From: Auanema rhodensis
Taxonomy: Eukaryota; Animalia; Nematoda
Direction: 5' to 3'
Assembly (NCBI GenBank): GCA_964057225.1
Contig: OZ059897.1
Coordinates: 9,548,001-9,612,000, forward strand
DNA length: 64,000 bases
The first letter of the stretch is position 1, and the number at the start of each line of letters is the position of its first letter. Below the pieces are notes generated by a model. The model was not told where the DNA came from and did no database searches. It saw only the letters and a list, made by a program, of their open reading frames with translations. The translations under genes were made by a program, and so were the position numbers. Below are positions 8,780-50,519 of the stretch, one piece after another.

Positions 8780-9416
8780 TTAAGTTTTACCTTTCATTTG
8801 AAATTATAACGTTTATTTTAAAAATTTATTCCTAACCTCTTTCTGATCAGATAGAATTCTGTAGATGTAACATTGTTTCAGTTCTTAGAACTCTGTTTAA
8901 GTGTTTTCAAACTTTGTATAGATAACAAGAAAAATGAAATGATAGAGATAGAACACTTCTAAGATCTTGATCCAAGGTTTATCTGACGGACTTATCCATT
9001 AGAACCAAAGATTACAAGAATTATTCTGATTTCACCTGCATAAAGATCCAGTAGAAAATTACCTTTTGCTCTGAACATCTAAATGATTCAATACAATATC
9101 AGAAATCACAGATTACCTTTTTTTTGAAAATTAAACGTTTATTTTGAATATTCTTTCTTAATCTCTTTCTGATCAGATAGAATTCTGTGGATGTAACATT
9201 GCTTCTGCCCTTTCGAATTTTGTTTTAGTCTTTTCCAACCTTGTTTAGATAACAAGAAAAATGAAATGATAGAGAGAGAACACTTCTAAGATCTTGATCT
9301 AAAATTTTTCTGACGGACTGATCCATTAGAACCAAAGAAGACAAGAACTATTCTGATTTCATCTGCATAAAGATCCAGTAGAAAATTACGTTATGCTCTG
9401 AACATCTAAATGATTC

Positions 9417-11550
9417 GAACTATTTCGCTGCCCACGAAACGCGCTGCTATGTCTTCTCTACCAAGGATTGTTCTCATTGCTATGGTTGGCTCTATTTGGA
9501 GAATTAAACGCCACAATTCGAGATATCTATTTTGTATCTCGCATATGGATTCGTAAGATTCCATAAAATGCTTTTGCAATTCTTCCTGTATAAGAGTGGT
9601 TGCATATTGTAGATGATCTTGCGCTATTCTCTGAGATACATTCTTGTATCTCGTTGTTTACTTTGGAGCCTATATAATGTGCTTGCGCTTGTACTGCTTT
9701 CGTTTCAATCTCCAAAGGTGGTGATGACGTTCTCTGTTTTTATTGCGTTCTCTGCTTTCTTTGCGATCTTTGTGAACACCATATATTAATGTAACCGTTG
9801 TTGGCGCGCGCGTGGATGTTATGGCTTGAGTTGTATCGATCTCTGGCGTTGTTTGAGGGTCCTGGATTAGCTTTGTTACTTCCGTTGTTGTCGTTATATA
9901 TTCATTTTTGTCTGTCAGGCGTCTGGTTAAGTAGGGAGGTGTTCTTTTATCCTCTAGTAGCGGTAGAAAGGTTTGAATGAGAAGATTTCGTGTATATTTG
10001 TTGGGGCTATTTGTTTGTTGATGGGGCCCAACAGGTAAACCAAAATTATTCTTCATATCTCGATATAATTTCTCTATATCTGGCAGGATGATAGTTGGTA
10101 CAGGCAGATGTCGGAATCTTTCATCGTCGGCTCTGGCCGCTGTTCGATTGGGTTTTATTGTACGTAGTTTGAGAACTTGGTGATATAGATCAATTGTTTC
10201 TTTAATAATCAGTTGTTCCTTTTCGTTATTAGTTGATAATACGGGCCTGATTGGCGGCATGTTTACAAATGCTTTCAAAACTTCTTGTTTTGATGGCACC
10301 GACATGTTGTTTTGTGCGAAAATGGTCGGTGTAAATGCCAACTCGAGCGCTATACTTTCGGTTCGCTCTCGATAACTTCCTTCTTTTGTGAGTATTTTTT
10401 CGTCAAATTCTTCTGCTGTTAATCTGTCGCCTATCTGCTCTAAAAGTTGCAGGGAGGTGAGGTATTTAACGGCTCCTCTTGTGGTAGCTGCCAGTTCTTT
10501 TTGGGCGAAGAATTGAAGCATTTCTTCTTCCGGGTCGTAGAATTCATATATTTTTAAGAATCTTTCTATTGATCTATTCGAAGTAGTGCTTCGTAGGAAG
10601 AATTTGAACCGCTCGGAATGTGCTGAGATCCACTTAACAATAGAATATGTTGGATCCATTGTCCGTCTGGCTCGAATTATAGGAATTATTTGTGATATCC
10701 CAGGGTTACTCATTACTGGACGTAAAAATGGGTATGGGCATATGTTCAATGTTAAAGTTTCGTAGTCTTCTTGTTCTTTTATCCAGCTTTCGTTCAATTG
10801 CAGTGCGCATTGCGCTATAGCCCTTTTTTGACGCTTAGCTGGCAACTTTTTATATTCTCTTTCAATTAAGTTGTGTATATTATTGTCATTTGGATATTTT
10901 GGAAAAAGTATATAATTGCCCGTGGTTGATTGAAATATAGGTTGCGAAAAACATGATGTAATCTGTTTTGGAATTTGTTTATTGTCGATAACAAGGGCTG
11001 ACTGCGTATTGGGAATTAGTATTATGCTGTCTCCAATGATGGCATCGTATTCACTCATGTCTATGTAGTTGCATCTCTGTTCGTATGATTGGATTTCCCA
11101 GATGATCATTGAAGTATTGGATGCGCATTCGCCATGATGTGCAAGACAGCCTTCCGTATTGAGTAATAGATTTGCCAATATGGTGTCGTCTGGCATCCTG
11201 GTCATAACGCCTCTTTCCAAAACCAGTCGTTCTTTTTCTTCGCATTGTTCGTAATTGAATGAGCGCGCTGGAGAGAATGTAGGTTCGGTTGTCGCGTATG
11301 TCAAGCTATCCAATTTAACCAGGTCTTCTGATTTCCATTTACGGTCGCGGACAGCCAGTCTACATTCGTTTTCTGTTGTTGGCTCAATTCGAACAATGGA
11401 GGAGTTATGATCCCTTAAAAATAGCAAATCCCTGATGCATATTTTATGTATTTCTTTTGAACATCGCCATGAATCCCATTCGTGAGCCGTCTGGTTTCTG
11501 GTATACAGATGTATGTTTGTGCGGAGGACAAGTTTGGTAGGTGGTATTGT
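9417..11550 (-). pseudogene. env: env-like glycoprotein, class III (herpesvirus gB-like) fusogen, frameshifted and truncated
   Basis: 585-aa ORF 9670-11427 with Cys-spaced ectodomain and RQKR furin site; start-less frame 9417-9657 reads QDHLQYATTLIQEELQKHFMESYESICEIQNRYLELWRLILQIEPTIAMRTILGREDIAARFVG, resembling the gB central helix. Confidence 0.75.
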
Positions 11551-12540
11551 GCATCAGTTATGGTGATTAGTGATAAGATCACTGATAAAGCTACTGCTAG
11601 TGTTAAGGGGGATATCAAGGTCAAATTATTGACTCTTGAGCCTCTTCCTCTACCTCTATTATTGTTGTTTCCCCTGAAGGGATTATTACCGCGTTGACGG
11701 CTATCACTCTCCTGATTACGTGATAAGTTGTTATTTCTTTGATACCAATTTGGATTTGAGAAATTTCTACCGCGATTACCAAAATTGCGGTTTCTTGCGA
11801 AAGAATTTTGCAAATTTTGTGGTTTCTGATTATTTGATGAATTTTGATAACTTTGATAATTTTGATAATTTTGGTAGTTTCTATTGTTAAATGATTGATA
11901 GCCTCTGCCGATTCCTCGCCTTCCGGTGTCGCGCCTGGGAGGGAATGTTCTATCGATTGCGTTAACCAGTAGCGCCTGAGGGTCGGCTACTTGGTTAGCA
12001 ATTGATTCCTCCCATCTGGCATTATCAATTGCCTCGGCAAACGTTTTTGGTTTAGCTCTGATTACCCCCGGGCGTATTGTGTTTTTGAGACCGCGTAGAA
12101 AGGTGGATCTAAGAATATGGTCCTTGTGTGGGTCTGTATGTGAGAAAGCGTTTAAGCTTAGGCTTCGTAAAGTTTGTGCGAATCCATCCACTGATAGCTC
12201 GCCTTGGGTGGAATTCTGTAGCGTTATCAGCGCCGGATCTTGATTATACTCTGGGCATAGCCTAGAGGTAAGTTCTTCGATGAGTGTATTCCACGAGCCA
12301 GATGTCTTGATAGTATCGCTAAGCTGTGTATAAGCTTCTTCAGCTCGTTCGTTTTTGAGAAGTAATGGTAAGATTGTTAATCTTTCGGGCATAACTAAGC
12401 CTAAGGCGTTTGCAAAGGTGTTGAACTCTAAAGTCTCTAAAGTTGCGACTTCCGTCGTATATAGGGCAATATGGGGAGCTTAATGCCTGAGCAATGGTAG
12501 ATTTACCCGCTCCTGGAAGCCGTGATGTTTCGGTCATTTC
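11415..12540 (-). pseudogene. gag: Ty3/Gypsy-type gag (capsid plus RG/N-rich tail), frameshift near 12430
   Basis: PIYDGSRNFRDF then shift to EFNTFANALGLVMPERL...; QGELSVDGFA, FLRGL, PKTFAEAIDNA capsid motifs; RGRGRG tail. Confidence 0.85.
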
Positions 12541-12865
12541 GGATGAGATGCCCTCAGGGTATGTGATAGGTGATATTATCACTTCGCTCCTTGTTGGATC
12601 TTGATGAGTGTTTTCTATTGCCTTCGGGTTCCTGCTAGAGGAGCCTATTATAGGTGTAGTTGTTGCGAAACGGGCTCTTGGAACCTGGATGACTTTACCA
12701 GATGCCTGAGGCAATGTTCTATCAGTTGATCGTGAGCTAGGGATCGCACTATCTGATCTGTTAAGATTAGGATTATGTGAAGAAAACCGGGGTTTTGCTG
12801 TTCCGCCGATAAAACAACACCTTACAATAAAAAAAAAAATTTTTTTTTCCAAAAGATGAGTTCGA

Positions 12866-12878
12866 GGTGGAACCTCCA
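12866..12878 (-). promoter_or_regulatory. Primer-binding site complementary to tRNA-Gln 3' end
   Basis: TGGAGGTTCCACC on - strand directly after the LTR; complements GGTGGAACCT-CCA, the recalled 3' end of metazoan tRNA-Gln. Confidence 0.85.
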
Positions 12879-13222
12879 CGTTCCGTTATGCTCCTGCGTC
12901 GATAATATAAACCATTGTAGTTTATACCATGACGCGAATAGTATTCCTTGGTGTAGCGGTAGGAATACAGAGCATAAGGTCAATCATAAGATAAAAGAGA
13001 GAAAGATTTATTGGCATGAAACTACAACAATAATATACAAAGATAAAGATACAATACAATAAGATAAATATAAGTATAAAGACTAAACTACAAGCCGTCC
13101 ATGAGCTTGCTAAGAGGCGAACTCCCGACCAAGGGAACGAGGGAAGGCGGAGCCATTCCTCGGTTCTCTGGTCGTCTGGCTCTAACCCTTCAGCTACATA
13201 TATGGGGAGTCCGAATGGAACG
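12879..13222 (-). repeat. 5' LTR of element 1 (344 bp, CGTTCC...GGAACG)
   Basis: aligns to 34797-35141 and 38024-38368 with a few substitutions and one indel. Confidence 0.93.
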
Positions 13223-13507
13223 CTTTCTTAATCTCTTTCTGATCAGATAGAATTCTGTGGATGTAACATTGCTTCTGCCCTTTTGAATTTTGTTTTAGTC
13301 TTTTCCAACCTTGTTTAGATAACAAGAAAAAAGAAATGATAGAGAGAGAACACTTCTAAGATCTCGAACCAAAGTTTTTCTGACGAACTGATCCATTAGA
13401 ACCAAAGAAGACAAGAACTATTCTGATTTCACCTGCATAAAGATCCAGTAGAAAATTACGTTATGATCTGAACATCTAAATGATTCAATACAATATTAGA
13501 AATCACA

Positions 13508-13580: not shown

Positions 13581-14156
13581 TTAAGTTTTACCTTTTTTTT
13601 GAAATTTAAACGTTTATTTTGAATATTCTTTCTTAATCTCTTTCTGATCAGATAGAATTCTGTAGATGTAACATTGTTTCAGTTCTTAGAACTCTGTTTA
13701 AGTCTTTTCCAACCTTGTTTAGATAACAAGAAAAATGAAATGATAGAGAGAGAACACTTCTAAGATCTCGAACCAAAGTTTTTCTGACGGACTGATCCAT
13801 TAGAACCAAAGAAGACAAGAACTATTCTGATTTCACCTGCATAAAGATCCATGTTCCATACGTGTCCTATAAGTAGAGCGATTGACAACGTCAATCGCTT
13901 CTAAAACGGAACATTATAAAAACAAATAGCTGACGCTACATTTGAGAAACAGGAATTCAATGCAATAAAGAACGAACACTTTTTCATATTAAGTTTAATC
14001 AAAGAAAGCCCAATTCAAGCGGAACCAAGTTCCGCGGACCTGATATAACGACTTTTTATGCTCGTAAGGAAAACTATATAAGGTTTCCTTACGAGTCCTT
14101 TGGGCTGCGACTAGGAATCATTATGTAACTTTTATTATTGTAATTTGTATACTTTA

Positions 14157-14504
14157 TCATGCTTCATAGAGCTCTTTTCTTGTCTCTTCTCCAATTTTAT
14201 CGACAAGTTGTTGAAATAAGTTGTTTTCGTCTTTGTCCGTAGCTGACTTGTCTGTCGTATTCGGTCCGGTTTCTGCTTGGTAATTGTCCTGTTGTGTTTC
14301 CCGCGTAATTTCCTGTGGTGCTATTGTTTCTTGTGGTGTTATTGAAGGTCGGCTTTGTTCGTAGAATTCGTCCTCGTTGTCGCTTTCTGAATCAGAGATT
14401 GATGTTGTGGTGGGCGTGCTATTTTTAGCGCGCGTATTCGTTCCATATTGGTTCCTAGGGTTCCGGCTAGGTAACCATATGGACTTTAATAGAGTGAATG
14501 CCAT
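14157..14504 (-). pseudogene. Truncated copy of element-2 ORF A
   Basis: identical to first 114 aa of 15971-16462, cut at 14162. Confidence 0.6.
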
Positions 14505-15001
14505 TGTAAAAGTAACAGAGAGTAGAGGAAAGAAGTTTATTCAGAATATGGAATAACAATTATAAAAGCAAAAATATAATAATAAGATAAATGAAACTAC
14601 ATGTTATGAGAAAGCCAACCTAGTTGCTTTCTCAGGGGTTTATATAGCAAAATATTAATTACAAATATAATTGAATTTATACAAAAAGTAGTTCAGGTCT
14701 AGTTTCTTATTGAATTCTATTAACCAAAAGTCGGTTGACGTTGTCAACCGCCTTCTTTATAAGACACGTATGGAACATGCCTTATATTGAAAAAGTAGCT
14801 GACCTCAGCTATAAGAAATTAGACATTTTAAGAAAAAGAAACAAAAGAGAAAAATATATATATAAATGAATTAGAATTAGAATACTAGAATAGGAATAAT
14901 AGTGTAATAGGAATAATATAAGAAAAATGAAAACAATATAAAAAGAAAAAAGAAAAGAAAAGAGGAGAGAAAAAAAACTATGAATTCACCTCGTGCAGCT
15001 G

Positions 15002-15637
15002 TTATCCTTCTTCCTCCTCGATTTGTCCCAGCTGGAAGTCGGTCGCGGGTTGTCGGTCGGCGACCGTCCATATGTGGAACAGGCTGACATCTGTCAGCAG
15101 TTCCGTCGCCTGGCCTGCTATCATCATTTTCTTTCTTTTCTGGTCCGGAGTGGTGGCGCGCGACGCCATTAGTATCCTTAAGGCCTGGCTGATCAGGTCT
15201 CCCGCCTTCCTAATCGACTGGTTGGTCGATTCCATCATACTTTCTTCTGTCCAGCTCTTGTGGATCTCTTTCGCGGCCCATCTTGGGATGAGATCCGCGC
15301 TAGCTACATTTTCGGAGGCTGGATATCCTAGTTCTTCGCGTAGTTTGTTGATGGTGGCCTTGGTGCGGGCAGTGGCCTCGGACCAGTTTTGCGCCATTTT
15401 GGCCATCTCTTCTTCATCATTGTTACATGAACATTGTAACCTTTCCAGAGTCTCTATTGATAGAGTAACTCTGGCTAAATTCTCCGAAAATGATTGGAGA
15501 ATTCTTATCTTTTTAGTACGGTTGTTTGTTGTCTCCAGTTGTTATAGTTCTATCTGGAGCGAATGTATCTTGATCCATTTTTCCTTGATCATCGCGATGG
15601 GTGTCTCGCAGGCTGGTGGAGGGAAGACGAGTGTCAT
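15002..15637 (-). pseudogene. Element-2 ORF B (helical protein of unknown function) with in-frame TAA at 15542-15544
   Basis: ORFs 15542-15727 and 15002-15406 share a frame, joined by 45 open codons after a single stop. Confidence 0.55.
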
Positions 15638-15970
15638 TCTTGTGGTGCTGGGAGTTTTTCTGCTTGAGGTGAATTTTGAGCTTATATAGGGTGAAAAAAA
15701 TAGGTAAGTATATATTTTGTGATACATAGATATTAAGATTGATGATTGGGGAAAACATTGTTTTTGTGGTTTGGGTAGCAGATAGAATGAATTATTGTAA
15801 TATAATAAAAAAAAATTAATGAATAAAGTTATTTTCCCAAAAAAGTTTCTATTTTTGATTAAATGGTTGTTGTTGCTCCAATCACTGTTGAAGGTCGTTT
15901 CTTTCGTACAACCGGTGTTTTTGGTGAGTTGAAATGAGCATCAGGTATCTGAGAGCGTGTGAGCCTGTTT

Positions 15971-16462
15971 TTAGACTCTAAGGTGGGTATCACACTGTTG
16001 TACCTTATTGGTACGTGAAATGGTTTTTGGAGCGGTTATAGGATTTTTGTCTTCTATTCCAAGTGCCAACTTGAGGGCTGAGCTCCATCTTTTGTTTGTA
16101 GGTATCTCTTTACGTCTTTCTTCATAGAGCTCTTTTCTTGTCTCTTCTCCAATTTTATCGACAAGTTGTTGAAATAAGTTGTTTTCGTCTTTGTCCGTAG
16201 CTGACTTGTCTGTCGTATTCGGTCCGGTTTCTGCTTGGTAATTGTCCTGTTGTGTTTCCCGCGTAATTTCCTGTGGTGCTATTGTTTCTTGTGGTGTTAT
16301 TGAAGGTCGGCTTTGTTCGTAGAATTCGTCCTCGTTGTCGCTTTCTGAATCAGAGATTGATGTTGTGGTGGGCGTGCTATTTTTAGCGCGCGTATTCGTT
16401 CCATATTGGTTCCTAGGGTTCCGGCTAGGTAACCATATGGACTTTAATAGAGTGAATGCCAT
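15971..16462 (-). CDS. Element-2 ORF A, 163 aa, acidic/Thr-rich, possibly a gag N-terminal remnant
   Basis: ATG follows the LTR-like terminal repeat; no recognisable domain. Confidence 0.45.
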   Translation of the reverse strand: MAFTLLKSIWLPSRNPRNQYGTNTRAKNSTPTTTSISDSESDNEDEFYEQSRPSITPQETIAPQEITRETQQDNYQAETGPNTTDKSATDKDENNLFQQLVDKIGEETRKELYEERRKEIPTNKRWSSALKLALGIEDKNPITAPKTISRTNKVQQCDTHLRV

Positions 16463-16959
16463 TGTAAAAGTAACAGAGAGTAGAGGAAAGAAGTTTATTC
16501 AGAATATGGAATAACAATTATAAAAGCAAAAATATAATAATAAGATAAATGAAACTACATGTTATGAGAAAGCCAACCTAGTTGCTTTCTCAGGGGTTTA
16601 TATAGCAAAATATTAATTACAAATATAATTGAATTTATACAAAAAGTAGTTCAGGTCTAGTTTCTTATTGAATTCTATTAACCAAAAGTCGGTTGACGTT
16701 GTCAACCGCCTTCTTTATAAGACACGTATGGAACATGCCTTATATTGAAAAAGTAGCTGACCTCAGCTATAAGAAATTAGACATTTTAAGAAAAAGAAAC
16801 AAAAGAGAAAAATATATATATAAATGAATTAGAATTAGAATACTAGAATAGGAATAATAGTGTAATAGGAATAATATAAGAAAAATGAAAACAATATAAA
16901 AAGAAAAAAGAAAAGAAAAGAGGAGAGAAAAAAAACTATGAATTCACCTCGTGCAGCTG

Positions 16960-17595
16960 TTATCCTTCTTCCTCCTCGATTTGTCCCAGCTGGAAGTCGG
17001 TCGCGGGTTGTCGGTCGGCGACCGTCCATATGTGGAACAGGCTGACATCTGTCAGCAGTTCCGTCGCCTGGCCTGCTATCATCATTTTCTTTCTTTTCTG
17101 GTCCGGAGTGGTGGCGCGCGACGCCATTAGTATCCTTAAGGCCTGGCTGATCAGGTCTCCCGCCTTCCTAATCGACTGGTTGGTCGATTCCATCATACTT
17201 TCTTCTGTCCAGCTCTTGTGGATCTCTTTCGCGGCCCATCTTGGGATGAGATCCGCGCTAGCTACATTTTCGGAGGCTGGATATCCTAGTTCTTCGCGTA
17301 GTTTGTTGATGGTGGCCTTGGTGCGGGCAGTGGCCTCGGACCAGTTTTGCGCCATTTTGGCCATCTCTTCTTCATCATTGTTACATGAACATTGTAACCT
17401 TTCCAGAGTCTCTATTGATAGAGTAACTCTGGCTAAATTCTCCGAAAATGATTGGAGAATTCTTATCTTTTTAGTACGGTTGTTTGTTGTCTCCAGTTGT
17501 TATAGTTCTATCTGGAGCGAATGTATCTTGATCCATTTTTCCTTGATCATCGCGATGGGTGTCTCGCAGGCTGGTGGAGGGAAGACGAGTGTCAT
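16960..17595 (-). pseudogene. Second copy of element-2 ORF B, same internal stop
   Basis: duplicate at offset 1958. Confidence 0.55.
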
Positions 17596-18189
17596 TCTTG
17601 TGGTGCTGGGAGTTTTTCTGCTTGAGGTGAACTTTGAGCTTATATAGGGTGAAAAAAATAGGTAAGTATATATTTTGTGATACATAGATATTAAGATTGA
17701 TGATTGGGGAAAACATTGTTTTTGTGGTTTGGGTAGCAGAAAAACAAAAATATAATAATAAGATAAATGAAACTACATGTTATGAGAAAGCCAACCTAGT
17801 TGCTTTCTCAGGGGTTTATATAGCAAAATATTAATTACAAATATAATTGAATTTATACAAAAAGTAGTTCAGGTCTAGTTTCTTATTGAATTCTATTAAC
17901 CAAAAGTCGGTTGACGTTGTCAACCGCCTTCTTTATAAGACACGTATGGAACAGTAATATTTGGTTCTAATGGATCAGTTCGTCAGAAAAACCTTAGATC
18001 AAGATCTTAGAAGTGTTCTATCTCTATCATTTCATTTTTCTTGGTATCTATACAAAGTTTGAAAACACTTAAACAGAGTTCTAAGAACTAAAACAATGTT
18101 ACATCTACAGAATTCTATGTGATCAGAAAGAGGTTAGGAATAAATTTTCAAAATAAACGTTATAATTTCAAATAAAAGGTAAAACTTAA

Positions 18190-34568: not shown

Positions 34569-34796
34569 TGTGATTTCTAATATTGTATTGAATCATTTAG
34601 ATGTTCAGAGCATAACGTAATTATCTACTGGATCTTTATGCAGATGAAATCAGGCGACAGCCAGATTAAGAGTCTGGTGCTCTACCGACTGAGCTAACCG
34701 GGCTGTGATTTCTAATATTGTATTGAATCATTTAGATGTTCAGAGCATAACGTAATTTTCTACTGGATCTTTATGCAGGTGAAATCAGAATAGTTC

Positions 34797-35141
34797 CGTT
34801 CCTTTATGCTCCTGCGTCGATAATATAAACCATTGTAGTTTATACTATGACGCGCATAGTATTCCTTGGTGTAGCGGTAAGGAATAAAGAGCATAAGGTC
34901 AATCATAAGATAAAAGAGAGAAAGATTTATTAGCATGAAACTACAACAATAATATACAAAGATAAAGATACAATACAATAAGATAAATATAAGTATAAAG
35001 ACTAAACTACAAGCCGTCCATGAGCTTGCTAAGAGGCGAACTCCCGACCAAGGGAACGAGGGAAGGCGGAGCCATTCCTCGGTCCTCTGGTCGTCTGGCT
35101 CTAACCCTTCAGCTACATATATGGGGAGTCCGAATGGAACG
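34797..35141 (-). repeat. 3' LTR of element 3
   Basis: CGTTCC...GGAACG, direct repeat of 38024-38368. Confidence 0.95.
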
Positions 35142-35780
35142 TGCCCTTTTTCAAAGATTTTTCGCGTCCGCGCGATATAAAGAGTTTTTAGTGTATATGT
35201 AGCTGAGTTTCAGAGTCTAGGAGTTTACAATTAAAATTAAAAGTTTTAAAATCTACATGTAGAAAAATATTTAAATGGTATTAATAGGTTTCTTTATGGT
35301 ATTAAGATAGAATTTGAATACAATAATGGGTTTTATGTTATTTTGTAACGGAGGATTAGAAAAATAAATTTAGTCATTGTAGTACTGTAATAAAAAAAAT
35401 TGTTCCATGAATTTGAGATTTATGTGAGATAATAAGGAATTATTCAACTTTTTGCGTGCATGGTTACTCGTATCCTAATGATGATGGGGATAAAGATTTT
35501 TAGTTATTAATTGTTTTCGTCTTCATGTGTCTCTCTGAATGAATCCTTGAGTACTAATGGAGGCTACCACTCAGATGGGGTGTGGCTTAGGCGCCTGCCA
35601 ATTTTCGTCTCTTCTTGGAGATACATATGGAGCTCAATTTAGTGCGATAGACTATCTCTATCGTCGTAAAGGAGTACGGTAGCCTATTATTTATATTATA
35701 TTTTCACTTATTCCTTATTTTTGGTTGTTTATTCTCTTAATCTCTCATCAAAATTTTTCTAATTCACCGTTACTTTCATT

Positions 35781-36240
35781 TTACAATCTACAGAAAAGAA
35801 AAGAATGTATATAAAAATTTTTTCTGTCGTCGGCTATGATGAAGTCCGGATCTTCGTAGGTGTCGTCAGAAGGTGAATATGTTCCTTCTCGGGGAGTATA
35901 AAACTGGTCGACTTGCGGCTTCGGCTTCTCGGCTGGTTGGTGCGGTTTTTCTATTTGAACACTAAGAAGTCGGGTACGGCTTCTGCGACGACTTGCGACA
36001 GTAGCGTCACTGTTGGTATCGGACGGGTAAAGGGCTCGGAAAGCCGATGAGAATCTTTTGGCCACCTTTATAGGACTCTTGGTTTGGAAAAACCGAGAAT
36101 GGTGAGCTACGTGTGGGATGTTGACGTAAGGTGCGTAAGATTCTTTTAGATGTGTGTTGGGAGAGAGAAAGATTCGGGAGCAATAGGATAGTCATGCTTT
36201 GCTGGGCGATGCGGAGGGTAAATGAGAGGGAGTTTTCCAA
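35781..36240 (-). pseudogene. Overlapping, frameshifted short ORFs of unknown function inside element 3
   Basis: 77-aa and 94-aa ORFs overlap in a GC-richer island; no domain recognised. Confidence 0.35.
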
Positions 36241-36486
36241 ATCTTGGCCAACAATCTGACTCCGCCTATCTACCGTAAGCTTATTATAGTTAATGGTGTT
36301 TATCTCTTCTCAAAAACTTTTTTTTTATCCGCTCTTGCACTTTCCGCTTGTACTTCCTTTAATTTCTCTCTTCACTAGTAGCTTTCAATCATGTTTTTGT
36401 CCCCCTTTTTTCTCTTGTTTACCAAGCTAGATTTTATTATTTTTGAGAGCTAAGAATTCTTAAAAATGAGCGTCTAGCCTACTGGA

Positions 36487-36980
36487 ATGACCTTTGTCAT
36501 GCAAAAGCTGTATGACGTTATTGTCTTTTATGATGCTGAAGAGAGATTGGCTTATAGGCCCCATCCTGATATAATATTAATGGTTGGTGCATTAGTCAAT
36601 TTCAATTTTCAGTATTTTCTTTTTTCTATTTTAGTTTATTGAGGATCTGCAAATGTTCTATTTGGGCAGGGGCCTCGTTAATTTTTCCGCTATGGCGGAA
36701 ATTGCGCCCGAGATTGAGCTCGTAGGGCGTCTCTGTCTCCGTGACCTGTGCGCGCATTTTTATGCCGCTCTCCTGTGTGGACTTGTAGGAAGTCCCTGGA
36801 GATGGTATACCGAGAGGCAGCCTTTATTCTATGAATTATTATGTAAAATTTTGTTTAAAATTTATGTATGTTATGATAGCTCTTCGCTTGGATTGCAGCT
36901 GAGGACCTCACTGGGGAGAGAGTATCCCGAATACCTCTCCCCCAGTTAAGAGCCTATCTCTCTTGCTGCAGAGTTTGAAA
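36487..36980 (+). CDS. Putative spliced cargo gene antisense to element 3; 3' exon structure uncertain
   Basis: 32-codon exon 36487-36582, 52-nt GT...TTTTAG intron, in-frame exon from 36635; AATAAA near 37013. Confidence 0.45.
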
Positions 36981-38010
36981 GACAGCTAGCTTTCAAGTGG
37001 GGTTTTTGACTGAATAAAGCTTGTACTCTGTTTTTTTTTTTTTTTTTTTTTTTTCTATTTATTTTTTTTTATGCGCTTTGCTCTGTTTTCGTCAAGAAAA
37101 TGGACTTATGTTTTCAATCTTTTCCTCATTCCTTTTTCCTTAAATAGCATGTTTTGCTCAAAATGTTTTCGACATTGTGCATGCTAATGAGGTTTGAGGA
37201 GAGTTATTGAAAAGGCTGTCCCTTTTCTCGATCAAAATAAGCAAAAGTGCGTTTTCCTAAGCGAATTTCTTTTTGAAAATGAGAAAAATACGTCTATTTT
37301 TAAACATTTCCAATTTACTTAGGATTACTGTAGGAGATAAGGGGTATCTTATGAGTTGAAACAACGAAATGATTTGAGGAAGGTGAAATAATCTACGGGG
37401 ATAAAATCCGTAGCAGTTATGCTTCCGCCAACTTGACCTGACTGTCAAATAAGAGCTGAGAAGTCTTATTGCAGATTTACCAGGCTTTTTCGGACTAGTG
37501 TGGTCTCTTTTTAAATTCAATTTATGTAACCGTTTTTGGTTTCCCGCAAAATAATATGTAAAATGATCTTTTACGTCTGAATATAATAATTTTTCAAAAT
37601 TCTAGTCCTGACCACAAAATATACAAACTATAATCAATTGCGCGCGTCTTATAAATTTTTGTTCCAATAATCAAACTTCTCTATGCCCAAAAAAAATGTG
37701 AACAATTATAATTTCTCGTTTGGCGAAATTGTCCTCTATTTCAAACCAAACGTCCTCAAAATGGCATGAGAAGCGGTACAAGATACGATAAGAAAAGGGT
37801 GGACATTCAGACGGTTTTAAATTGAGGACGGCGGGCAAAAATTTTATTGGTCCTATCTCGCATTTAAGCGAGATCCCTTGTATCTGTACCTTAAAACAAA
37901 TTGGCGCCTTCATTTTGTTGTTTCAAGTGGAGGAATTTATAATTTAGCATGCAAAAATGGACTTTTACAATAAAAAAAAAATTTTTTTTTTTTTCAAAAG
38001 ATGAGTTCGA

Positions 38011-38023
38011 GGTGGAACCTCCA
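38011..38023 (-). promoter_or_regulatory. tRNA-Gln primer-binding site
   Basis: TGGAGGTTCCACC abutting the 5' LTR. Confidence 0.85.
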
Positions 38024-38368
38024 CGTTCCGTTATGCTCCTGCGTCGATAATATAAACCATTGTAGTTTATACTATGACGCGCATAGTATTCCTTGGTGTA
38101 GCGGTAAGGAATAAAGAGCATAAGGTCAATCATAAGATAAAAGAGAGAAAGATTTATTAGCATGAAACTACAACAATAATATACAAAGATAAAGATACAA
38201 TACAATAAGATAAATATAAGTATAAAGACTAAACTACAAGCCGTCCATGAGCTTGCTAAGAGGCGAACTCCCGACCAAGGGAACGAGGGAAGGCGGAGCC
38301 ATTCCTCGGTCCTCTGGTCGTCTGGCTCTAACCCTTCAGCTACATATATGGGGAGTCCGAATGGAACG
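38024..38368 (-). repeat. 5' LTR of element 3
   Basis: CGTTCC...GGAACG. Confidence 0.95.
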
Positions 38369-38610
38369 GTTCTTGTCTTCTTTGGTTCTAATGAATCAGT
38401 CCGTCAGAAAAACTTTGGTCCGAGATTTTAGAAGTGTTCTCTCTCTATCATTTCATTTTTCTTGTTATCTAAACAAAGTTTGAAAACACTTAAACAGAGT
38501 TCTAAGAACTGAAACAATGTTACATCTACAGAATTCTATCTGATCAGAAAGAGATTAAGAAATAATATTCAAAATAAACGTTTAAATTTCAAAAAAAAGG
38601 TAAAACTTAA

Positions 38611-47782: not shown

Positions 47783-50519
47783 ATGGGTGCATTTTTGCTT
47801 ACTTCTGAGCTCTTCTTAGTTTTTATTTTGACTTCATGCCTTTTAAATAAAGTAAGTTAGCAATTGTACTTGCTAATTCTTTACTTGTTCTATTCAGTAC
47901 GGCAATTGGAGGAAACAGCATATAGTTGTAACATTATCAACATTTATTGGATGGTTTTTCTCGTTTACCATAATATTTGTGTTACCTTTGGATGTTGCTA
48001 TTGTTCGTTACTAAAATATTTTGAATCTAGTTGTGAAACACAAAGATGTTTGAGTATTTATTATTTTCTTATTCAAAAGAGAAACTGTTTTCATATTTGA
48101 CTAAGACAATTTTCTAGCTTTGCAGACTTTCTATAATAAGTGTGAATTGGACCGTCAACATTCAACACCAGGTACATCAAATGATTTGACAAATGTAACG
48201 ATTTGCGAGCAACCCGATGGCTATGTCCGTGATGGCGTTCTTTTGCGCCTGTGGAGAGTTGTATACTGGACAGCTCAAGCTTTAACATGGTTTATTTTGT
48301 TACCATATTTGTTCTTTTCATTATAACCATGTGTAGGATTGTTTTACCATTGTTGCAATCCTATTCAAATGTCGGCGATTTTACAACTGGAGCTCGCTTT
48401 CGATCTGCCTTATTGAACAATATAATATATTATGGTATATATGCGCTGATATTCGTATTACTTCTGTTTTATGCAATGATCAAAGGAGTTGTCATAAACA
48501 GGTTAGCACATTGCAGTTTCTTATATAATTTGTTGTTTAGTGAGCATCTCAAAGTTATCTTAGTATCGGCTTCTAATACCTGGGGATTGTTTTTATTGGT
48601 ATTGCTATTGGGGTATGGATTAGTGGAATTGCCACGTAGCTTATGGCACAAGGGGAATTTAAGTAAAATTGAGCATACTGATAGTATTAAATATAAATTC
48701 ATGCTTGCAGTGTATAGGCTAAATAAAACTTATTTTAATATAGATAAGTTGTCTTCTGAAAAAAGTGAGGCTGAAGATAATCTTAAAAGATTGTATAGGT
48801 AAGACCACTTTATTGCAATTGCTTATGATATATGCTATTTTAATATTGCAGAGAGTCTCGTAAAGTTTTGAATTCATTGCAAAATGAGCATGGAAAACGG
48901 GAAAAGGCACAAATTATCTTGTCAAAATTTCCAAACGAGGTAAATTTTTTTCTTTCTGTCTATTACAGTAATAGTTGCAGGTTTTGGACGAAATTTTTCC
49001 AGTAAGAAGTGCTTCAGAATTTTCTGGTATTGCCGATGTTGGTTCAGTGGCCAGCGAAAAATTTCTTGTATGACATCCATTTGGTTCCGTCACTTATTTA
49101 TTTGTAGGTTTCACTTCATAAAGAAGTAATAGCTGCAGTGCAATCACATCATCGAACAAAAACTCAGTGGAGGTAGGTCATGGCTATATTAACTCCGACT
49201 GTATCAGATATATTACAGCTCCTTATTGAATAAAGCATTGTTTATTGAAGATATATCAAGGGCTGAGCACGGCGCGAAACTGCAACCTATTCCCAATACT
49301 TTCATTCCTGCTTCACTTCAGCATCTCTGGTATGTGAAATTTCGTAAAACCGTCACGAGGGTAAGTTTTGGACTACAGAACACTGAAATGTACTTTTGTT
49401 TAAGTTTTTTTCTTGTATTCTATCTGCAATGACAGCTTTGATTTTAATCTCTGAATGCACATTCTTCATCGTTCATCCAACCCTTTCTCCTGCAGCTTTG
49501 ATAATGGAGTATGCGGCTACAAGGTTTCATTATAAGTATACTCAGGTAGTATGCAAATGAATATCATATTAAATTCTAAAACATTTAAGTTTGTTGCTAT
49601 TGGAATTATTTGTTATCTCTGTTTCTGTGCTTATTTCACAGTTTTTCGTTTGAAAATATATAAATATTATCATTTGGATCCACATAGGAACACTGATGAA
49701 AACAGTTTACTATTCAGCGCAATGTTAGTTTATCATAGGTGATTCTCCAATATATTCTCGTTTTTTAGATTGCTATGTCGCTTAACCCCTCCGATTTGCT
49801 TGAACTTTTTGGGTATGGTTCATCTTGATTCACATATTACAATGGCTAAGGACTACGGTGTTGAAACACAGTTTACCAAGGTACTGTAATTAATCAGGCA
49901 TTAATCATTTTCAATTTCTAGCTTATGGGTCATTTAGATGTTATTCCTATTCTTGCTAAGGGTATTAATATATATCTGCCTATTTGTATCCTAATATTCT
50001 GTGCTGTTAATTATTATAAGTATAACTGCTTATACAGCTTCAATTTGCGATCTGTTTTATTTTAGGCTGGGATCTTATATTATGCATAATTTAGGGTTCG
50101 ACCAATTCATAGCTGATAATGAATTCACTCAGGTTCGCTAAAAATTTTAGCGTTCTTGACTTTAAAAATATTTTAACAGGACATGGTTGCTGCTGGAAAA
50201 GCCCTTGTCCAACTTGAGCGTAATACCATTATTAGATCAATCAACAGAATAAATCGTGAAGAACAACGCCGGGACCACAGATCGCCATTCCGAAGTATAT
50301 TTTACTGTTTTTAAATTTATTTCTACTTTTTAACATTATTTAGGAAATAGAGACAAGCATGTAGATGAGGACCGAGTTCCTATCATAAAAGGAAATACAG
50401 AAGATGATGTGGAAACTGGCCTTCTTCTTGATTATACTGACAACATGACATCTAGAAATTTAGAAAGAAGCCCATATAAGCAGCACCCATCTCCAACCAA
50501 TTTATTCGATGATCTCTGA
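47783..50519 (+). CDS. LMBRD2: LMBR1 domain-containing protein 2 (multi-exon membrane protein)
   Basis: spliced [78 protein letters not shown]-terminal TNLFDDL. Confidence 0.92.

Follow-up and report, generated by a model that had tools for sequence, protein, structure and literature searches.

Extended primer binding, in which a primer tRNA contacts the element RNA at more places than the primer-binding site (PBS), has been described in several retroelements. In Ty3 of Saccharomyces cerevisiae the D arm of the primer pairs with the element RNA in U3, according to the available part of PMC5371799. For Ty1, boxes 0, 1 and 2.1 have been proposed, the last of which is unconfirmed in particles in the available part of PMC3592414. 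In MuLV the extra contacts were absent with modified tRNA, and extra tRNA contacts proposed from sequence have failed in vivo in Ty1, Gypsy and MuLV. The PAS of HIV-1, a further upstream element of this kind, is 8 nt long. Priming of animal Ty3/gypsy elements with a PBS of 11-14 nt has been studied in few elements.

A gag-env-pol order has been reported for nematode Ty3/gypsy elements in the available part of PMC13524379, and a PBS for tRNA-Gln is in itself already published for such elements, as eight of the ten Gln rows in the part of its master table at hand are Caenorhabditis gag-env-pol elements. The available text describes a search with the last 12 nt of tRNAs only. Out of 23 nematode rows in the available part of the published element listing, 16 are without a primer site.

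Two related elements inside tRNA-Lys gene arrays

The window, i.e. the whole stretch of 64,000 nucleotides of Auanema rhodensis DNA analyzed here, is AT-rich and holds 71 tRNA-Lys(CTT) genes in tandem arrays between positions 221 and 45284, with units of 404 and 540 bp in two orientations. Two related elements, A and B, were found inside these arrays, both on the minus strand. They lie in array spacer, 230-285 bp upstream of a tRNA gene, and this location may reflect a preference for tRNA arrays. Their parts are as follows.

38369..38372 and 34793-34796, no strand: 4-bp target site duplication of element A
38024..38368, minus strand: 5' LTR of element A, 345 bp, ends CG..CG
35142..38002, minus strand: internal part of element A, no ORF longer than 136 aa
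34797..35141, minus strand: 3' LTR of element A, 345 bp, with a copy of the 17-nt segment treated below at 34862-34878
12879..13222, minus strand: 5' LTR of element B, carrying the variant hairpin and the 17-nt segment at 12944-12960
12858..12878, minus strand: PBS (12866-12878) and T-loop 8-mer (12858-12865) of element B
11415..12479, minus strand: gag-like ORF of element B, reading frames broken at both ends
9670..11553, minus strand: 627-aa ORF of element B, related to the env region of nematode gag-env-pol polyproteins

Element A has paired LTRs, with one difference over 345 bp, inside a target site duplication. Element B has a single LTR, with neither pol nor a 3' LTR after its env-like ORF. 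As no ORF in the internal part of element A exceeds 136 aa, this copy is non-autonomous, and no pol ORF (RT, RNase H or integrase) was found in A or B, which makes placement by RT impossible. Both are defective or non-autonomous copies. On either side of element B lies one copy of a 264-bp stretch of array sequence (9153-9416 and 13223-13486), duplicated in direct orientation; together with the missing pol and 3' LTR, this points to a rearrangement within the array. LTRs canonically end in TG..CA. All three LTRs found here (38024-38368, 34797-35141 and 12879-13222) instead have CG..CG ends with a 6-bp inverted repeat, and tools that require TG..CA ends would miss this LTR family.

The gag-like ORF matched the Pfam domain Retrotrans_gag at E 1e-4, under the curated cut-off, while the 627-aa ORF itself had no Pfam match. 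For the latter, 58 relatives were found at E up to 0.001, with nematode names in nine of the ten that were looked up. Among 13 scanned relatives, 11 carried gB-like or fusion-protein matches and several continued into protease, RT, RNase H and integrase; the part that matches the 627-aa ORF lies after gag and before the gB-like or fusion and pol domains where these are present. Gag followed by an env region ahead of pol is the order of the gag-env-pol family, the gag match being weak. A and B are two copies of a nematode Ty3/gypsy element of the gag-env-pol type. Neither the 627-aa ORF nor gag had a match in word-index homolog searches, and an Atlas search returned only scores under 0.8.

Two other features of the window lie outside A and B. 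Positions 13852-17953, between two opposed tRNA arrays, are taken up by an element whose terminal inverted repeats of 15 bp are perfect. Inside it, a stretch of about 1958 bp is tandemly duplicated, and its short ORFs gave no clear Pfam match; the ends of the element begin TGTTCC, close to the LTR ends of A and B. At 48233-48799 there is a piece of a host gene of the LMBR1 family (Pfam E 1e-35).

Segments complementary to tRNA-Gln and the predicted U5 fold

Three segments of element A can be set against a single tRNA, and they are listed here together with the structural features of the LTR.

38003..38010, minus strand: 8-mer against the tRNA T loop, GAGTTCGA, after a 5-nt skip in the tRNA
38011..38023, minus strand: PBS for tRNA-Gln(UUG), GGTGGAACCTCCA, 13 nt, abutting the LTR edge at 38024
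38089..38105, minus strand: 17-nt segment against tRNA-Gln nt 3-19 (5' acceptor strand and D arm), TTCCTTGGTGTAGCGGT
38087..38113, minus strand: predicted small U5 hairpin, 8-bp stem and 11-nt loop (38095-38105)
38025..38125, minus strand: predicted three-way U5 fold with a closing stem, a small hairpin and a long hairpin
38153..38158, minus strand: sole AATAAA of the LTR, at LTR position 211

All segments claimed in an earlier note on this DNA are present in the sequence, the 8-mer starting at 38003 and not at 38004. The nematode tRNA-Gln sequence given in that note is correct for Caenorhabditis elegans in the available part of the tRNA table supplementing PMC8192933. Against this table the PBS matches Gln-TTG with CCA at 13/13 positions, the 17-mer matches nt 3-19 at 16/17 with a mismatch at position 7, and the 8-mer matches the T loop at 7/8. 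This supports tRNA-Gln(UUG) as the tRNA named by the PBS of a minus-strand element, and likewise the potential for 16/17 pairing with the 5' and D arm. The 17-mer and the PBS have the same polarity, and further copies of the 17-mer occur at 34862-34878 and 12944-12960. With 13 nt the PBS falls short of 18 nt, as in the multipartite sites of the Ty1/Ty3 type, and the additional segments face the T and D arms of the same tRNA, the 8-mer being weak when taken alone. It is common to A and B, inside 29 identical nt after the LTR. As for the T-arm segment of the earlier note, its presence and 7/8 match stand, but its significance does not: the probability is 4e-4 at the fixed place and rises to 0.11 with offsets and tRNA windows free.

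Three window matches to the tRNA-type 17-mer were found at one mismatch, where 0.07 would be expected even at three mismatches (100 shuffles); as copies of one LTR they count as one event. A 16/17 match to any window of tRNA nt 1-63 is expected 2.5e-5 times per LTR. Against L079, a nematode-type tRNA-Gln gene with T16, the LTR scores 15/17, or 16 with G-U pairs; 15/17 was reached by 2 of 1500 dinucleotide LTR shuffles and 16 by none, and the LTR-tRNA duplex energy by 5 of 3000 shuffles. On these sequence statistics, the 17-nt match to the tRNA-Gln 5' and D arm is beyond chance, at about 1e-3 to 1e-5. When 86 distinct tRNA genes were scored against U5, the 14 best partners were all Gln. Of the 50 genes labelled non-Gln, the two highest scorers (14 and 13) lie on L094, a sequence with degenerate Gln-pattern matches as well, and the next score was 12; the tRNA-Lys of the window scores 10. 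A set of 88 eukaryote tRNA-Gln matches was collected from 84 metagenome loci with a pattern that excluded one animal type by design; most of them look plant-type, and 15/17 was found in 40 and 16 in none. As far as sequence scores go, the fit to the nematode-type tRNA specifically amounts to one base only. A strict nematode-type tRNA pattern had no match in viral, prokaryote or metagenome contigs and a looser one none in viral contigs, 10 viral tRNAs served as controls only, and Rfam returned three weak, unrelated matches.

Because the strongly folded end of the LTR starts about 30 nt after the sole AATAAA, the part of the LTR downstream of this signal is likely U5, and we use the label in that sense. 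Folding of the terminal 100 nt of the LTR gave z scores of -6.5 to -7.6, reached by 0 of 200 shuffles in each of five folds. The 8-bp hairpin is found in both MFE and centroid folds, with a loop of 11 nt in copy A or 12 nt in copy B whose bases are predicted to be unpaired at 0.84-1.0. The anti-D-arm sequence had been placed in the loop as a whole; this holds for 11-12 of its 17 bases, while the remainder forms the 3' strand of the stem. The predicted opening cost is 0.1-1.3 kcal/mol for the loop and 9-10 kcal/mol for the whole 17-mer, against duplex energies, tRNA unfolding cost excluded, of about -20 (-19.6) kcal/mol for 12 bp and -27.5 kcal/mol for the 17-mer. A nested co-fold cannot represent the crossed three-site complex and was left out of the evidence.

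The earlier note also held that the hairpin is kept in the two LTR variants by different pairings, and this was not borne out. Between A and B it differs by one substitution and one 1-nt indel on one strand, with the other strand unchanged, so that the changes amount to a register shift and are neither compensatory nor two-sided. Over the 105-nt U5 there are four differences, all compatible with the fold and none two-sided; none falls in the loop, as expected by chance. The loop is represented here only by near-identical LTR copies. A search for related LTRs gave one bacterial-genome match, judged to be chance, and none in viral contigs; the env alignment was too diverged for use as a search query, and four short LTR motifs had no matching letters in the supplements of PMC13524379.

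A single contig of sequencing run X8 (its start also in X9) departs from the window at 38044 and carries the long hairpin in a different form. Inspected by eye, this form has the same 7-nt loop, and out of its 10 pairs four change on both sides, two on one side and none is broken. Such two-sided changes speak for the predicted long hairpin and for a fold on the minus strand, but do not bear on the anti-D loop itself. Loose ends at 38044 and 38059 belong to diverged LTR subfamilies in which the long U5 hairpin takes other forms, and a joint of 37945 to 38086 represents an LTR form without the PBS region that resumes at the small hairpin. The contig-substitution table for 38004-38158 omits known copy-B changes, and its blanks were not taken as conservation.

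Host tRNA-Gln and a possible three-site primer complex

Pairing with the loop presupposes that the host tRNA-Gln carries the D-arm sequence named in the earlier note. Eleven DNA runs, under five organism labels, contain the stretch, and no RNA run is listed among them. The nematode-type gene (L079:975-1056) is tiled by contigs of runs X1, X6, X8 and X9, three of which (X1, X8 and X9) also contain the element. Both CTG and TTG anticodons occur in these contigs, several of which run unclipped through the tRNA-Gln 3' end that fits the PBS. Among 32 listed contigs, the alignments of 15, 20 and 21 end exactly at position 16 (T in the reference) with 2-3 letters left unaligned, and a tRNA-Gln-like copy at one X9 loose end has C16. 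The table of other letters gives the anticodon change only and appears to drop differences near alignment ends, for which reason position 16 is read indirectly: a single contig shows C16 outright, and for others it is deduced. Together, the clips and the X9 copy indicate that the D-arm sequence fitting the loop is very probably present in the host, in agreement with the note; a host tRNA-Gln lacking this sequence, which the note had named as refuting its idea, is thus not what the runs show. Depth falls at the tRNA-Gln acceptor stem, and the loose ends there belong to a second Gln family with another acceptor stem; by its sequence, the D arm of this family would fit the loop and its acceptor stem would not fit the PBS. 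The two families are found in many contigs at high depth, and host tRNA-Gln families are perhaps also arrayed.

Given these three segments and the order in which they lie, the predicted fold, and the presence of a fitting tRNA in the host runs, we propose that the U5 loop is a second docking site that helps to unfold and hold the primer, the tRNA being bound at three places; we put the probability of this at somewhat under 60%. In such a complex the tRNA-Gln 3' end (nt 64-76) would sit on the PBS and, beyond a bulge of 5 nt, the T loop on the 8 nt that follow. This would free the 5' strand of the tRNA, which would pair, along with the D arm, with the U5 hairpin loop about 70 bases upstream of the PBS. 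Since the 3' strand of the hairpin is complementary to tRNA nt 3-6, the 5' strand of the tRNA could invade and open the 8-bp stem. The mismatch at position 7 (relative to the C. elegans tRNA) would remain, and m1G9 and m1A58 would presumably each block one pair. The extra contacts would compensate for a PBS of 13 and not 18 nt, as do the Ty1 boxes and the second site of Ty3. As modeled, the three contacts cross in a pseudoknot, beyond what folding programs score; annealing, its order and the benefit of the tRNA contacts are inferred.

The earlier idea of an extended primer-capture structure is supported in part: element polarity, tRNA identity, complementarity, predicted loop exposure, a fitting tRNA-Gln in host runs and the Ty1/Ty3 analogy count in favor, while the T-loop 8-mer is non-significant with offsets allowed and the hairpin changes are one-sided. 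Overall, we regard the observation as real and non-random, and the putative site as a new layout of a known principle, with an anti-5'/D-arm segment in a U5 loop; because extended primer binding is known, the gain is moderate. No description of such a U5 site was found in the literature searched, a search whose reach took in few subscription papers. A more far-reaching version, which we consider rather unlikely, is that the U5 hairpin acts as a toehold switch: the loop would catch the D arm and the freed 5' strand would unzip the stem, licensing reverse transcription, with the loop also a ready target for host 5' tRNA-Gln halves. If true, nematodes could tune elements by a tRNA fragment other than the 3' ones.

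The same loop may, however, bind tRNA-Gln for a job other than priming, either as a second tRNA that bridges genomes in dimerisation or packaging, or as regulatory 5' halves. Both host tRNA-Gln families would be suitable partners of the loop, which faces tRNA nt 8-19, and a single tRNA on all three sites requires a crossed topology. There are precedents in Gypsy, whose second site binds tRNA and bridges RNAs while being dispensable for cDNA synthesis (available part of PMC1635307), and in C. elegans, where tRNA-Gln 5' halves are functional (available part of PMC13385625). As the 17-nt match reaches into the acceptor strand freed by PBS binding and concerns the same isoacceptor as the PBS, we find a role outside priming unlikely. 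It is also conceivable that the 17-mer is a functionless relic, i.e. a piece of tRNA-Gln copied once into the LTR by a template switch onto the primer or by capture from a tRNA gene array. Copying of the primer yields the same polarity, the elements sit inside tRNA gene arrays, host tRNA-Gln is found in many high-depth contigs, and the young LTR copies (1 difference in 345 bp) have had little time for decay of a relic. Yet the piece is placed almost exactly in the sole large open loop of the fold, a captured piece would not be expected inside an 8-bp stem, and the two-sided changes in the long hairpin of the diverged copy, as read by eye, suggest a maintained structure; to us a relic origin is about as unlikely as a role outside priming.

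Two further readings carry far less weight. A chance match is very improbable, since 16/17 is expected only 2.5e-5 times per LTR, the strand is the right one, the partner is the tRNA that the PBS specifies and the segment lies in a predicted open loop, even considering that 15/17 was reached in 2/1500 shuffles and the duplex energy in 5/3000, and that a genome-wide scan inspects many LTRs. Most improbable of all is a DNA-level function as an RNA polymerase III A box on the plus strand, with GTTCGA as a loose B box, tied to life in tRNA arrays. TGGTGTAGCGG at 38094 fits the A-box pattern and GTTCGA is found at 38005, but the order is reversed, as the A box lies downstream of the B-like one, a full B box is absent from both strands of 37901-38400, and the match runs past the box into the acceptor strand.

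If three-site docking holds, the 17-nt 5'/D-arm site in a predicted U5 loop close to the PBS offers a compact system of 120 nt for the priming question. A candidate rule, that the loop follows the primer, can be checked across published nematode elements, and an anti-D loop could help to find primer sites in nematode elements that are listed without one.

Comparison with described primer-binding systems

The likenesses and differences below refer to the available parts of the cited papers. One close system is that of the nematode gag-env-pol errantiviruses with an HSV gB-type env (PMC13524379), which share a gag followed by an env-like ORF, a homologous env region and, in eight listed Caenorhabditis elements, a Gln PBS at the LTR edge. 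Elements A and B differ from them in having no pol and in the CG..CG ends of their LTRs. Gypsy of Drosophila (PMC1635307), a Ty3/gypsy element that likewise carries env, also has a short PBS and a second site for its primer, tRNA-Lys2. This second site, however, is located at the 3' end and engages the anticodon and T stems, and cDNA synthesis does not depend on it.

In HIV-1 (PMC11181671, PMC13191261), the PAS is also a tRNA-complementary segment upstream of the PBS and partly masked in a stem. The PAS faces the T arm and occurs alongside a PBS of 18 nt, whereas the nematode segment, with most of its 17 nt in a predicted loop, is directed against the 5' end and D arm. A PAS in the strict sense would pair with the T arm from upstream; here the upstream segment faces nt 3-19 and the T-arm match lies downstream of the PBS. 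The analogy drawn in the earlier note to the Ty3 bipartite PBS and the HIV PAS consequently agrees with Ty3 and with the position of the PAS, but not with the tRNA arm of the latter. Ty1 (PMC3592414) combines a short PBS with tRNA-complementary boxes close after it, much like the 8-mer; its extra contacts are downstream of the PBS, while the main extra site in the nematode element is upstream, inside the LTR.

Lastly, Ty3 (PMC5371799) shares with the nematode element its membership in Ty3/gypsy and a short PBS, and in Ty3 the acceptor stem, T and D arms all pair with the element RNA. Its primer is tRNAi-Met and not tRNA-Gln, and the second part of its site, about 4800 nt distant in the U3 of the 3' end, bridges the ends of the RNA. 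In the nematode element the 17-mer lies about 50 nt downstream of the sole AATAAA and is therefore, unlike in Ty3, likely to be found at the 5' end of the RNA only. All parts of the putative site are gathered within about 100 nt at that end, with the anti-D sequence in a predicted hairpin loop upstream of the PBS.
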